DNA of 48,767 bases from Chlamydiia bacterium (lineage in GTDB: Bacteria; Chlamydiota; Chlamydiia; Chlamydiales; SM23-39). The notes beneath the pieces are model-generated. The model had not been told where the DNA came from. It saw nothing but the letters and a program-made list of their open reading frames with translations, and did not search any database. Of this stretch, positions 95 to 35,362 are shown one piece after another (position 1 is the first letter of the stretch; each line of letters opens with the position of its first letter). Where the stretch lies: contig JACRBF010000016.1 in the NCBI GenBank assembly GCA_016213175.1, forward strand, positions 1-48,767, given 5' to 3'. Made by a program: the position numbers and the translations under genes.

Positions 95-262
95 TATACC
101 CGTTCCACCTCAAAAGCGCCCAAAGCAAATCGATTCAAATCTTCTCAAATCGAATAAAACAGCGCGGTTAATATTAAGTCAATATTGACCGCGCTTTTTT
201 ATTCGATTTTAGAGAGATTTCAATGCGATTTTCTCGGGTGCCTTTGAGGTGGAACGGGTATA
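95..262. mobile_element. Family A palindromic MITE-like element, full copy A1 (168 bp)
   Basis: Termini TATACCCGTTCCACCTCAAA...TTTGAGGTGGAACGGGTATA are inverted repeats and the arms pair over about 80 nt. The centre AATAAAACAGCGCGGT-N19-ACCGCGCTTTTTTATT is a GC stem with an A-run before and a T-run after. Near-identical copies at 1000-1146, 2854-3021 and 20042-20160. Confidence 0.9.
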
Positions 263-999: not shown

Positions 1000-1146
1000 T
1001 ATACCCGTTCCATCTCAAAAGTGCCCAAAGCAAATCGATTCAAATCCTCTCAAATCGAATAAAGCAGCGAGGTTAATATTAAGTCAATATTGACCTCGAC
1101 TTTTTTATTCGATTTTCTTGGGTGCCTTTGAGGTGGAACGGGTATA
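1000..1146. mobile_element. Family A element, copy A2 (147 bp, internal deletion in one arm)
   Basis: Same termini as A1. It lacks about 21 bp between two TCGATTTT direct repeats in the right arm. The core stem is CGAGGT/ACCTCG instead of CGCGGT/ACCGCG, a double compensatory change. Confidence 0.9.
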
Positions 1147-1634: not shown

Positions 1635-1951
1635 TGTTTGGCTTGCCTGAACAGGTCCTAAAATTGCTTCAACGCTACTTTGCGGCCCATCCTCAAATTG
1701 TTAAGGTTGTGGTTTACGGTTCGCGGGCTATGGGACGAGAAACTGCAGGTTCAGATGTAGATTTAGCCATTATTACGAAGGGCGATCGTGATATCTCAGG
1801 GCGCATACAGGCAGATTTGGAAGAATTACCGACTCCCTACCTCTTTGATGTTATTGACTATGAACGGGTCGTCAATCCGTCATTACGCGAACATATCGAT
1901 CGAGTGGGAATAGTGCTGTACTGTATATCCGTTCCACCTCAAAGCCCTTGA
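1634..1951 (+). CDS. Minimal nucleotidyltransferase (MNT, HI0073-like; putative antitoxin)
   Basis: VVVYGSRAMGRETAGSDVDLAI matches the G-S-x(n)-D-x-D polymerase-beta-fold nucleotidyltransferase motif. It is small (105 aa) and translationally coupled to the HEPN gene. The C-terminal ISVPPQSP and the stop are encoded by a family A fragment. Confidence 0.8.
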   Translation: MFGLPEQVLKLLQRYFAAHPQIVKVVVYGSRAMGRETAGSDVDLAIITKGDRDISGRIQADLEELPTPYLFDVIDYERVVNPSLREHIDRVGIVLYCISVPPQSP

Positions 1952-2746: not shown

Positions 2747-3071
2747 GAGACTGTTAACGGATTTGGTTTCTGTCGATTTTCGGGACCTTTTGAGCCGATT
2801 TTCGATTCAAAATTGGGGGGCAATATCCACATCCTAAAGTGGTCCCTTTTGTCTATACCCGTTCCACCTCAAAGGCACCCAAAGCAAATCGATTCAAATC
2901 CTCTCAAATCGAATAAAAAATCGAGGTTAATATTAAGTCAATATTGACCGCGCTTTTTTACTCGATTTGAGAGAGATTTCAATTCGATTTTCTTGGGTGC
3001 CTTTGAGATGGAACGGGTATAGACCAAAAATCCTCCGAAAAGCGACGAAATCCATATCCGTTAACAATCTC
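2747..3071. mobile_element. Family B-like element (copy B4) disrupted by nested family A copy
   Basis: Outer inverted repeats are GAGACTGTTAACGGATTTGGTTTCTGTCGATTTTCGGGA (left) and TCCGAAAAGCGACGAAATCCATATCCGTTAACAATCTC (right). The left arm continues as the B-family arm TTTTGAGCCGATTTTCGATTCAAAATTGGGGGGCAATAT. Element A4 occupies the centre. Confidence 0.75.
2854..3021. mobile_element. Family A element, full copy A4 (168 bp), nested in B4
   Basis: TATACCCGTTCCACCTCAAAGGCACCCAAAGC...GGGTGCCTTTGAGATGGAACGGGTATA. The core stem CGAGGT/ACCGCG has one mismatch and is intermediate between A1 and A2. Confidence 0.9.
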
Positions 3072-5314: not shown

Positions 5315-7113
5315 CACTTGTGTATACCGAACGTGGTGCAATAATCGGATTTGGTCTGGTGTGAAAGTGCTCTAGGTTCAACGACCGTAAGTTGCCCAAT
5401 ATTAGAAATATGGGGGCAACTTACGGTCGTTGAACCTAGAGGCTTTGACACAGCCGAAATCCCAATTCTTGAACCACGTTCGGTATATATTCGTTTTCCG
5501 TTGAGCCAGGTTTCGAGAACGCGGATTGCGTGAATAAGGTGGGGTTTTGTGGTTTTGGGATTGTGATCGAGGATCACGAAATCGGCATATTTTCCCACTT
5601 CGATGCTGCCTAACTCTTTTTCGCGAAATGATTGCCAGGCCGGATAGATTGTAAAAGCTTTGATGGCGTCATCGATGGTGATGGTTTCTTCTCCATTGAG
5701 AGTTCCCCCTCCTTCCATCTCCCTAGTAACGGCAATTTCCATGAGGAGGAGGGGATTCGGCGGGGAAAGGGGGGCGTCGTCATTGAAGCTAAATTTCATC
5801 CCAAGTGATTTGGCCGTTCTGGCGGAATCGATCGAATTGGCCCGCTTGTTCCCAAGAATTTGATCTCTCATGACCTGCCCATAGTAATAAACATGGGGAT
5901 TGGTGAAGGAGGGAGTGGCGGACACTAGAGCCATTTTTTGCAACAGCGCATGGTCGGCAATAGTGGCGTGTTCAACACGAAAACGGGGATCTTTAGCAGG
6001 TTTTTTATCGAGCGCTGTTTCATAGGCAGTCAGCGCATAGGCAATAGCCTGATCGCCATTGGCATGAATGGCTATTTGGAGGTTTTTGCGATGTGCTTGG
6101 AGTACGAGAGCATTGAGGGCGTCTTGGGTATAATTGAGTGTTCCACAGGTATTTTTTCCCCTGTATCTTTTTTTCAAAGCAGCGGTGTACCCCTGCAGAG
6201 ATCCGTCTGCCCAAATTTTTATGCCGAGAATGACAAAGTTGGGGGTGTTCTTGCGTTTCAGTTTCCCGATTCTTTCGAGAAGAGGAGAGATAACGTAGCC
6301 TTGAAGACGGATGGGCGCGTCTGGGCTCATGGCGAGCGCTTGTAGCGTCTGAATGTGTTCTACGGGGGTTGGGAAGGGGAGCCCCAACGCAAGATCAGTG
6401 ACAGTCGTAAAGCCCTTTTCTGCATAGTGAAAAGCGCTTGTTTTCGCTATTTGCGCGTAATCAAAGGCGAGGGTTTTAAAAGCTGCCATCAAAGCTGCAA
6501 TTGCGGGAAGTTCATAGGCTTTGCCGTTGAGCAGTCCCTGTTGCGTCCGGCCGAAGGATCCCCCCTGCAAGGGGCCGATTTTGTCCGTGATTCCGGCGAG
6601 ATCGAAGGCTTTGCGGTTTCCATAGGCGATATGTCCTGACTGGCTAATGACGAGAATCGGAACGGTGTCAGAAACAGCGTTTAGTTGCGTAAATCCGAGA
6701 TCCCCAGGTTCTGTCATCAAAGAGGGGTCGTAGCCGAAGGCGATGACAGGCCCCTTCTGGGCTGCTTCTTGAAGCGCCTCAAGAATAGAATCGATTGTTT
6801 TGTATTGCAAAGCGCTGACGTTCGTAAGCTTTTCCACAAGTCCCTGGAAAAGAAGGTGTGTGTGGGGTTCGATGAATCCGGGAAGAAGGGTGTTCCCTTG
6901 GAGATTGATGAGTTTTGTTGTAGTCTCTTGAAACTCCTGCGCCTCGCTGAAAGGGCCCACGAAGACGATTTTTCCTTGGTATACGGCTACCGCCTCTGCA
7001 GTAGGCTGCTCGTCATTGACAGTGAGAATAGGGCCGCCGAAAAAGATCTGGTCTGCCTGTTTTTCTGCAGCAAAGCAAGAGAGCGCGCAGAGCAGTGTAC
7101 ATAGCGTCTTCAT
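5314..7113 (-). CDS. Amidohydrolase-3 family metal-dependent hydrolase (YtcJ-like), secreted
   Basis: N-terminal signal peptide MKTLCTLLCALSCFAAEK. Metal ligand motifs EPHTHL, IHANGDQAI, RVEHATI and FNDDAPLSP are present. The last ~55 codons (from [11 protein letters not shown]...) run through repeat C1. Confidence 0.85.
   Translation of the reverse strand: MKTLCTLLCALSCFAAEKQADQIFFGGPILTVNDEQPTAEAVAVYQGKIVFVGPFSEAQEFQETTTKLINLQGNTLLPGFIEPHTHLLFQGLVEKLTNVSALQYKTIDSILEALQEAAQKGPVIAFGYDPSLMTEPGDLGFTQLNAVSDTVPILVISQSGHIAYGNRKAFDLAGITDKIGPLQGGSFGRTQQGLLNGKAYELPAIAALMAAFKTLAFDYAQIAKTSAFHYAEKGFTTVTDLALGLPFPTPVEHIQTLQALAMSPDAPIRLQGYVISPLLERIGKLKRKNTPNFVILGIKIWADGSLQGYTAALKKRYRGKNTCGTLNYTQDALNALVLQAHRKNLQIAIHANGDQAIAYALTAYETALDKKPAKDPRFRVEHATIADHALLQKMALVSATPSFTNPHVYYYGQVMRDQILGNKRANSIDSARTAKSLGMKFSFNDDAPLSPPNPLLLMEIAVTREMEGGGTLNGEETITIDDAIKAFTIYPAWQSFREKELGSIEVGKYADFVILDHNPKTTKPHLIHAIRVLETWLNGKRIYTERGSRIGISAVSKPLGSTTVSCPHISNIGQLTVVEPRALSHQTKSDYCTTFGIHK
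5323..5487. mobile_element. Family C palindromic element, long form C1 (165 bp)
   Basis: Termini are TATACCGAACGTGG...CCACGTTCGGTATA. The outer arms match C2 at 12157-12235. The inner perfect palindrome is CTCTAGGTTCAACGACCGTAAGTTGCCC...GGCAACTTACGGTCGTTGAACCTAGAG. Confidence 0.9.
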
Positions 7114-11262: not shown

Positions 11263-12300
11263 TTGGAGACAGTCACAGAACTCCGGGAGAATTTGCGTAT
11301 GATGCAAAAGCCTGTCCTTTTCATGCTCCTCTTTGCGGGTTTTGTCCTCCTTCTCTTTTTGATCATGCAGCCCTTCGAGGTGTTTCAATTCCGCTCCCAG
11401 ATCGCGATGCTATTTCCTAAGGGAGCTATTGCCATCAAAGAGCGCAACCTCTTGTTTATCGTTCAAGGCATTATGCTGCTCGTCATTATCCCCGTGTATA
11501 TCCTTACGTTTATCTTTTCCTGGAAATACAGAGCTCATAATGCGAAGGCAAAATATGATCCCGATTTGGTCGATAACCGCATTGCGGAATACATCTGGTG
11601 GGGCGTCCCTCTTGTTTTCACGATCATTATCTGCGTCTTGGCAGGAGTGAAAACCTATGAGTTAGATCCCTTTAAACCCCTTGTATCTGACAAAAAACCC
11701 ATGAAGATCCAGGTGGTAGCTCTTCAATGGAAATGGCTTTTTATCTATCCGGAGGAAAAAATTGCGACGGTCAATTTTGTGCAGTTTCCGGAACAAACCC
11801 CCATTGATTTTGAAATTACAGCTGACGCTCCCATGAACTCCTTTTGGATTCCCGATTTAGGCGGACAAATTTATGCCATGCCTAAAATGAAGACGAAATT
11901 GCATTTGATTGCCGATAAAACAGGAGAGTTTAGAGGCGCGTCGGCGAATTTAAGCGGCGAGGGCTTCGCTGGAATGCATTTTATTGCGAAAGCCTCCTCG
12001 GATGAGGAGTATCAACAATGGCTGCAATCAGCACGAGGAGCTGCAAAAACTCTACATTTATCTGAGTATGAGACATTGGCTCTTCCGAGTAAAAATAATG
12101 CTCCGGAAGTGTATCAATTGCAAGAAGAACGTCTTTTCGATCAGATCATGGATCGCTATACCAAACGTGATTCAAGAATTGGGATTTCGGCGTTGACACA
12201 GCCGAAATCCCAATTCTTGAATCACGTTTGGTATATATGTATCCACAACCACAAGGATGAGTATGTTCGGCAAACTGACTCTGAATGCTTTTATCCATGA
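11263..12300 (+). CDS. cyoA: Cytochrome bo3-type ubiquinol oxidase subunit II
   Basis: [48 protein letters not shown] parallels E. coli CyoA and lacks the CuA Cys ligands. The start may be ATG 11299. The last ~45 codons run through repeat C2 and overlap cyoB. Confidence 0.9.
12157..12235. mobile_element. Family C palindromic element, short form C2 (79 bp)
   Basis: TATACCAAACGTGATTCAAGAATTGGGATTTCGGC-GTTGACACA-GCCGAAATCCCAATTCTTGAATCACGTTTGGTATA, perfect 35-bp arms. It lies inside the 3' end of the cyoA ORF, 21 nt upstream of the cyoB ATG. Confidence 0.9.
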
Positions 12301-35244: not shown

Positions 35245-35362
35245 ACCTCTTGCGTAACTAAGGGTTCGTTGATTTTCTTGGGTGCCTTTGAGGTGGAACG
35301 GGTATATAACCGCGATATTGCCCCCCAATTTTTGCATCGAAAATCGGCTCAAAAGAGGTCTA
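35242..35362. mobile_element. Family B element, copy B3, internally deleted and chimeric with a family A terminus
   Basis: TAGACCTCTTGCGTAACTAAGGGTTCGTTGATTTTC + TTGGGTGCCTTTGAGGTGGAACGGGTATA (family A end, 35271-35306) + ATATTGCCCCCCAATTTTTGCATCGAAAATCGGCTCAAAAGAGGTCTA. Confidence 0.85.

Follow-up and report, generated by a model that had tools for sequence, protein, structure and literature searches.

A repeated terminator-like hairpin in an uncultured groundwater chlamydia is the tip of a 168-nt palindromic element, probably a foldback MITE

The stretch of DNA analysed here (the window, 48.8 kb of a chlamydial contig) carries at several sites the same kind of GC-rich hairpin, with a run of A upstream and a run of T downstream. 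The question raised by this locus is whether this core is a portable, bidirectional intrinsic terminator, whose stem has been kept paired by compensatory substitutions under selection, as the original prediction had it, or whether it forms part of something else. The window contains genes for a CT021-family protein and a SET-domain protein, together with housekeeping genes typical of Chlamydiota, and the closest AspRS among 5.8 billion proteins, from chlamydial metagenome-assembled genomes, is 79% identical to that of the window. One groundwater-metagenome run holding 99% of the window's words was taken as the source run, and copy numbers were obtained from its contig depths.

In the copy called A1, the centre is exactly as it had been described, with a 5' arm AGCGCGG at 161-167 and a 3' arm CCGCGCT at 189-195, preceded by an A-run at 153-159 and followed by a T-run at 195-200. 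The stem variants ascribed to each copy were confirmed (CGCGGT/ACCGCG in A1 and A5, CGAGGT/ACCGCG in A4, CGAGGT/ACCTCG in A2), as were the gene contexts, with A1 at a gene end, A5 between convergent genes and A2 between divergent starts. Two details have to be amended. The GC stem of A4, said to have one mismatch, contains two (A.G and T.C), and the 19 nt presented as a loop pair with themselves in the form GGUUAAUAUU-AAGUC-AAUAUUGACC, through ten pairs including one U.G, which becomes a C.A mismatch on the opposite strand, so that the true loop is of 5 nt and the true hairpin of 15-18 bp. The central hairpin of A1 (161..195, plus strand) has 15 pairs around this loop, and the terminator scans gave 15-20 pairs in A1, A2 and A5.

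The folding energies calculated for this hairpin vary with the strand and with the copy. On the strand with the G.U pair and on that with the C.A mismatch, respectively, they amount to -21.5 and -18.3 kcal/mol in A1, to -25.2 and -21.5 kcal/mol in A5, whose 25-bp stem is perfect, and to a weak -10.7 and -7.7 kcal/mol in A4, and A2 reaches -16.4 kcal/mol on its G.U strand; the C.A strand is about 3-4 kcal/mol the weaker of the two. Directly 3' of the stem there is a U6 tract on the G.U strand of A1, A2 and L019 (a locus of a related chlamydia, described below) and GU4AUU in A5, and the U-tracts of A5 and of most opposite strands are interrupted by G or C (GUUUUAUU, CUGCUUUAUU). A terminator scan flagged a single strand per copy, the plus strand of A1 and A2 and the minus strand of A5 (20149-20103), in each case the one where the internal mismatch is G.U and not C.A, and left A4 unflagged. 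These three hairpins are among the highest by stem length in the scans, the total counts of which were not above those of shuffled sequences. As regards the proposed bidirectional terminator, folding and scanning bear out good terminator anatomy on one strand of A1, A2 and A5, the other strand being weaker; in these models two-way termination appears physically plausible for intact copies, and unequal between strands.

This hairpin makes up no more than the tip of an imperfect palindrome of 168 nt, hereafter family A. A1 (95..262, plus strand) is a complete foldback element with TATACCC...GGGTATA as its boundaries, a TA at either end, a left terminal inverted repeat (TIR), TATACCCGTTCCACCTCAAAAGCGCCC, at 95..121 (plus) and a right one at 236..262 (minus). 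The 27-nt TIR, TATACCCGTTCCACCTCAAAGGCACCC, is found at the ends of each complete copy and has nine matches in the window, where 0.1 would be expected. A2 (1000..1146, plus; centre at 1066-1100) was counted as complete in spite of a 21-nt deletion in its right arm, A4 (2854..3021, plus) is complete, and A5 (20041..20162, minus) is truncated, with one outer arm and its TIR missing and a perfect stem around the tip. There are three remnants as well: A3 (1924..1950, plus), a terminal repeat fused to the 3' end of an MNT nucleotidyltransferase ORF, a short TIR-like sequence beginning TCCATCTCAAAGGCACCC (18505..18536, plus), and a solo arm with its TIR (35271..35306, minus) joined to an element of another family in a chimeric repeat. 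The window thus holds four core-bearing copies, three complete and one truncated, plus three remnants. A 37-mer core, expected zero times by chance, also occurs at 2918-2954 (plus) and 20109-20145 (minus). The original prediction had called the core portable, which fits its place in a multi-copy repeat.

The arms of family A are complementary along their full length, terminal repeats included, and in every complete copy the pairing extends at least 24 nt past the tip. The RNA of A1 folds as a single long hairpin of -99.0 kcal/mol on the plus strand and -101.1 kcal/mol on the minus strand, and A1, A2, A4 and L019 give long hairpins of -73 to -106 kcal/mol on either strand, the range for the three complete window copies being -73 to -105 kcal/mol. 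Copies are 147-168 nt long and have stops in all six frames, and hence no coding capacity. A1, A2, A4 and L019 each have a TA at either end, and removal of the element together with one TA leaves CTAG as the pre-insertion site of A1 and A4 and GTAG as that of A2. No empty insertion site was recovered, the nearest relatives (those with 79% AspRS identity) being without family A, and a TA duplication is in this situation indistinguishable from a repeat that ends in TATA. The window and the fetched loci contain neither a transposase with matching ends, which would denote a cognate autonomous element, nor a Y1 gene. In Rfam 15 no match to family A reached the gathering score, two tRNAs being all that passed in the window, and the similarities of the element were to generic miRNA-precursor (long-hairpin) families only, far below thresholds. 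It has also been observed that the outward-facing TIR end (236-262 and its equivalents) contains a -35-box-like TTGAGG and a Shine-Dalgarno-like GAGGTGGA; at L019 (4755-4785) the ATG of the downstream gene directly follows the last base of the element, and its ribosome-binding site must therefore lie inside the repeat.

In the source run, unique flanking sequence has a depth of 18.4x, the core of about 1600-2400 and the arms of about 5000, from which roughly 90-130 family A copies per genome can be estimated. A search of sequencing runs retrieved none of RNA for this genome and, for the organism of L019, DNA runs alone. Copies readable from end to end are the four core-bearing ones in the window and three external ones, and the sub-family counts given below rest on the depths of k-mer contigs. 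Logan contigs (source run, L031) break inside family A, and the one with AspRS stops 44 nt past the stop codon, in the middle of the tip; this repeat load will fragment any short-read metagenome-assembled genome of the lineage. In one source-run contig, of single-copy depth (21), a family A copy has lost 48 nt, which correspond to 150-197 of the window and include the tip hairpin and both the A-run and the T-run; such a loss of the centre is typical of palindrome instability. Of the features by which MITEs are recognised, family A shows four, namely TIRs within 15-30 bp, a size within 70-300 bp, no coding capacity and many dispersed copies in one genome.

Other repeats share the window. Family B is a second palindromic repeat of about 180 nt, with a centre GGGGAGCAATAT-loop-ATATTGCTCCCC, present at 25295-25473, 30023-30202, 2744-2831 and 35239-35356, and also in a relative with 79% AspRS identity (L032, 7499-7607). 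The copy at 35239-35356 is the chimera with the solo family A arm, and its junction falls at a common GATTTTCTTGG motif. Family C, the third palindromic family, is of 79 nt (12157-12235, with a half copy at 5441-5490); its 35-nt arms are 100% complementary, it starts with TATACC as family A does, and it has a GTTGACACA loop and no T-run. Finally, a 24-nt tandem repeat made up of TGCTTGTTCTACCTGTGGTTGTGC-like units runs off the contig end (48639-48767) and probably codes for an 8-residue peptide repeat.

The location of family A in relation to genes is best followed from their 3' ends. A1 overlaps the end of the SET-domain gene (ORF 993->220, minus strand), whose last 13 codons and stop are read from the right arm. 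A5, between a 156-aa ORF on the plus strand (19625-20095) and AspRS on the minus strand, starts at the exact stop-codon position of the orthologue of the former, which ends ...LLQSG* in L032 and continues in the window as ...LLQRG plus 17 aa, the element-derived extension of 17 codons occupying 20041..20095 (plus). A3 provides the MNT nucleotidyltransferase ORF with its last 8 codons and stop, and the homologue in L034 (4000-4302) continues for a single residue past the position at which the window protein passes into the repeat. When element-derived tail peptides were searched in protein databases, only two proteins were retrieved: P0001, an ordinary 143-aa IS200-type TnpA whose homologues end in ...NFKISEY* just where the element tail begins, and P0002, an LplA from a Chlamydiia metagenome-assembled genome. 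Five different genes, those of A5, A3 and A1, the P0001 tnpA and the P0002 LplA gene, have thus received an insertion in their last codons or stop, and in A5, A3 and P0001 the element starts at the stop-codon position. A1, A3, A5, L019 and L028 (another external locus, see below) are found at gene 3' ends, A2 between divergent starts, and A4 and L019 between same-direction genes, each preceding a gene on the same strand. Taking into account that TA targets inside or adjoining stop codons, together with tolerance of insertions there, are enough to place the element at gene ends, a termination benefit is not needed to account for that position.

The gene pair flanked by A2 and A3 (1122-1951) encodes a HEPN protein (NTase_sub_bind) and an MNT protein (Pol-beta nucleotidyltransferase) and forms a toxin-antitoxin-type cassette; a homologous pair exists in L034 (3587-4302) in a different context. 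The GTG at 1122 lies inside the repeat, and the HEPN gene probably has its true start close to 1215 instead.

A point made in favour of a selected terminator was the series of stem variants, in which A4 would be the intermediate and A2 the compensated form. Pairs were counted on an alignment of six copies with the fold of A1 as the structure (74 pairs). Across it, 93% of the cells are paired, and 12 of the 74 pairs have changed on both sides; these are spread over terminal repeats, arms and stem, only 2 of the 12 falling in the GC stem, so that this covariation check revealed no concentration there. Outside the invariant U.G, mismatches of the G.U type (8) and the A.C type (7) are balanced, and consequently there is no signal of strand-specific RNA selection. 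Compared with A1, the left arm of A4 bears three clustered changes, all of which match the L019-type arm (its stem arm being ATCGAGG), and its right arm (CCGCGCT) is of the A1 type; from these letters, A4 has the look of a mosaic and not of an intermediate one step away. A2 has an extra mismatch or bulge right after its six paired bases. In A5, the first unpaired T of the T-run has changed to G with respect to A1, which completes a C-G pair and breaks the U-tract.

The frequency of each arm combination was approximated in the source run from the depths of short k-mer contigs (31-46 nt) spanning the tip. The paired type of A1 and A5, AGCGCGG...CCGCGCT, has a depth of 154 (about 8 copies) and that of A2, AGCGAGG...CCTCGAC, a depth of 228 (about 12 copies). 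Mispaired combinations reach 148 for AGCGCGG with a non-G partner (about 8 copies) and 90 for CCTCGAC with a non-A partner (about 5), and since these could be the same copies seen from either arm, the mispaired class would comprise about 5-8 copies. These depths argue that mispaired arm versions are not rare. The claim that the substitution series reveals selection on a terminator hairpin is not supported: the changes are palindrome-wide, mispaired types are multi-copy, A5 has an interrupted U-tract and A4 resembles a mosaic. Arm covariation is a property of the whole palindrome and does not point to terminator-specific selection. Quasi-palindromes tend to mutate toward perfect pairing via template switching.

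The part of the element that does not vary is the tip. The 25-mer GGTTAATATTAAGTCAATATTGACC (166..190 in A1, plus strand), a 10-bp helix with one T.G and an AAGTC loop, is identical in the four core-bearing copies of the window and in L019, L026 and L028. L019 and L026 represent a rhizosphere chlamydia with a diverged family A, present in about 4-5 copies in its genome, whose stem is ATCGAGG/CCTCGAT and whose arms share 58-70% identity with the window copies; L028 is a different palindromic element, with arms and ends unrelated to family A and no T-run after the stem. At 67% arm identity, that to L019, the probability of 25 identical positions out of 25 is about 5e-5, and it lies between about 1e-6 and 1e-4 over the range of 58-70%. 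Judging from the copies compared, the tip is the most constrained part of the element. A 19-mer from it gave only single chance matches in AT-rich genomes among 185,579 species genomes, with none in chlamydiae, there was no match to the tip in viral, plasmid and phage collections, and an exact metagenome scan retrieved three true relatives (L019, L026 and L028), one gut species and one chance match.

In that human-gut bacterium (L020, L021, L023, L024, L025 5180-5250, L027, L029, L030), the 21-mer TTAATATTAAGTCAATATTGA closely follows the stop codon of a VanW-like gene, and nine bases past it there is an ordinary terminator, AACAGCGCGGTT-TGTT-CCGCGCTGTTTTT, whose stem is letter for letter that flanking the 21-mer in A5. 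The same three blocks are present in a different order, with rough post-hoc odds of coincidence of 1e-4 to 1e-2. The stem AACAGCGCGG/CCGCGCTGTT was discarded as a specific signal, given that it is a commonplace hairpin stem found in about 12 independent phage contexts.

Taken as a whole, family A is best explained as a non-autonomous foldback MITE of an uncultured groundwater chlamydia, the terminator effect being a by-product or at most co-opted, a reading to which we give a probability of roughly 60%. Correia and RUP elements are thought to be moved by a DDE transposase of the IS630/Tc1 type, and an enzyme of this class, duplicating TA, would have moved family A. The element would survive mainly in or beside stop codons, where TAA and TAG offer a TA target and where the final codons would give way to element sequence that brings its own stop. 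Once transcribed, the tip hairpin and its U-tract would probably cause some Rho-independent termination, or act as a stabilising 3' hairpin, an effect predicted to favour the G.U strand over the C.A strand. The variants regarded as compensatory may have arisen through sub-family descent, arm exchange and the drive of quasi-palindromes to perfect pairing. Two observations speak against a mere by-product: the perfect conservation of the 25-nt tip in diverged and even unrelated elements, which this reading leaves unexplained and which points to a sequence-specific role, and the fact that truncated A5 has kept exactly the hairpin, between convergent genes, as would befit a useful terminator.

It has been considered, in line with the original prediction, that the tip core is itself a selected, portable two-way intrinsic terminator, spread by the MITE and retained by the host at gene ends against read-through, with a stem that compensates its changes. 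This seems doubtful. The strong anatomy of A1, A2, A5 and L019, the symmetry that the A-run and T-run give to the core, the retention in A5 of the hairpin part alone between convergent genes and the multi-copy state of both paired stem types (about 8 and 12) all suit it, and the window has no excess of other terminator-like sites over shuffles, a need that the elements could fill. However, both-sided changes are not concentrated in the stem, mispaired combinations are likewise multi-copy, and the T->G change of A5 favours pairing over the U-tract. An intrinsic terminator needs no conserved tip sequence, and the invariant tip is found without a U-tract in L028. Moreover, A2 has divergent starts on its two sides, A4 and L019 are placed between same-direction genes, for which strong termination would be harmful, the elements face incoming genes in either orientation about equally (4 vs 4 in our own tally), and stop-codon TA targets explain the gene-end location. 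The constancy of the tip has led to a further, tentative proposal that we regard as rather improbable, namely that it is a sequence-specific site on a hairpin or cruciform tip for a host or element-encoded protein or for a nucleic acid, captured as a portable module by unrelated palindromic elements, with the GC stem and the A/T runs as its local frame. Besides the identity of the tip in diverged copies and in L028, this would be consistent with an asymmetry (T.G on one strand opposed to C.A on the complementary one, AAGTC loop) never 'corrected' to a perfect palindrome and with two AATATT half-palindromes located 11 nt apart. Against it, none of the chlamydial species representative genomes scanned contains the 19-mer, which is carried only by three related metagenome contigs, so that the tip is not a general chlamydial signal; the copy from which the tip has been deleted persists, and an AT-rich tip could simply ease hairpin extrusion.

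Transcription offers another possible role, in which the element would act as a structured RNA, either an RNase III substrate or a small-RNA precursor, setting the stability of neighbouring mRNAs. Correia and ERIC elements have been shown to do so for the mRNAs next to them, and by analogy the strong hairpins that family A forms on both strands, the copies in 3' ends of coding regions, which are certainly transcribed, and Rfam similarities confined to sub-threshold long-hairpin precursors would agree with this role; the lack of strand bias between G.U and A.C mismatches, and of any Rfam family, makes it unlikely. The possibility that family A is a REPIN- or IS200/IS605-type element, moved as ssDNA by a Y1 (HUH) transposase through recognition of the imperfect tip hairpin, appears very improbable. 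Y1 enzymes bind short imperfect hairpins, as in IS608 and REP, and the tip hairpin with its one mismatch resembles these; P0001, one of the only two tail-bearing database proteins, is a Y1 transposase fragment, and REPINs are likewise long hairpins with structure-preserving variation (PMC3337134). Nevertheless, P0001 represents one more stop-codon insertion, fused at the last codon or codons, no Y1 gene accompanies the copies of the window or loci, the GTAG/CGTC tag is lacking, and Y1 elements are without the long TIRs and TA ends that family A has. The P0001 lead was accordingly abandoned as a coincidental stop-codon insertion into a standard IS200-type TnpA. A REPIN identity was ruled out, there being no tag, no RAYT and no Y1 gene other than the coincidental P0001, and so was that of an IS200/IS605-derived palindrome-associated element, for which no TIRs, no duplication and sub-terminal hairpins are characteristic, where family A has TIRs, TA ends and a single central hairpin.

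If family A is a MITE, its interest lies in the genome that hosts it. As far as our searches went, no MITE families have been described in environmental chlamydiae, and here a genome has no fewer than three palindromic families, among them one of about 100 copies. Family A copies rewrite C-termini and stop codons and put strong hairpins between genes, which shows how uncultured, probably host-associated chlamydial genomes stay plastic, and they have an impact on annotation, with ORFs extended into repeats and assemblies that break at them. The invariant tip common to unrelated elements is the one feature worth specialist attention; if it were a specific site, both the protein or RNA that partners it and the part it plays, in element propagation or in host control of transcript ends, would be new.

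Among known systems, the closest are the Correia (NEMIS) elements of Neisseria and the RUP elements of Streptococcus pneumoniae, which are 100-170 bp long, with TIRs of about 26 nt that start with TATA, TA at both ends and hundreds of copies. MITEs of this type are non-coding, often located at gene ends and co-transcribed, and their long hairpins affect termination or mRNA processing. Family A resembles them in size, TATA-starting TIRs, TA ends, many copies, absence of coding capacity, gene-end insertion and long hairpins. It differs in having no sequence similarity to them and a host of the phylum Chlamydiota, in arms that are complementary over their full length and not at the ends only, and in a centre that, in place of an IHF site, consists of a 25-nt near-palindrome, invariant and flanked by runs of A and of T. 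As an idea, the mobile terminator has precedents in REPINs and Correia elements. Bacterial MITE families have been listed, and REP units defined by a conserved GTAG or CGTC tag (PMC3733652); Bertels and Rainey interpreted one class of REPINs, flanked by conserved runs of A and of T, as co-opted terminators (PMC3337134). Family A shares with REPINs (about 90-170 nt) a whole-length hairpin that is kept while the sequence varies, flanking A/T runs with the look of a two-way terminator and symmetric centre deletions, but it has no GTAG/CGTC tag at its tip hairpin or ends and no RAYT, and it possesses long TIRs and TA ends.

With canonical bidirectional Rho-independent terminators, the tip has in common a GC stem base, a 5-nt loop, a 3' U-tract and a complementary 5' A-tract; it departs from them in its long stem (15-25 bp) with an AU-rich upper half, its position inside a 168-nt palindrome, its invariant sequence, and one strand with a C.A mismatch and an interrupted U-tract. 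The palindromic elements of Rickettsia (RPE), which PMC3733652 mentions, are similar to family A as palindromic repeats tolerated inside coding regions, in their case of an obligate intracellular bacterium. RPE, however, lie in frame within genes and are translated through, whereas family A, with its stops in six frames, replaces C-terminal codons only.
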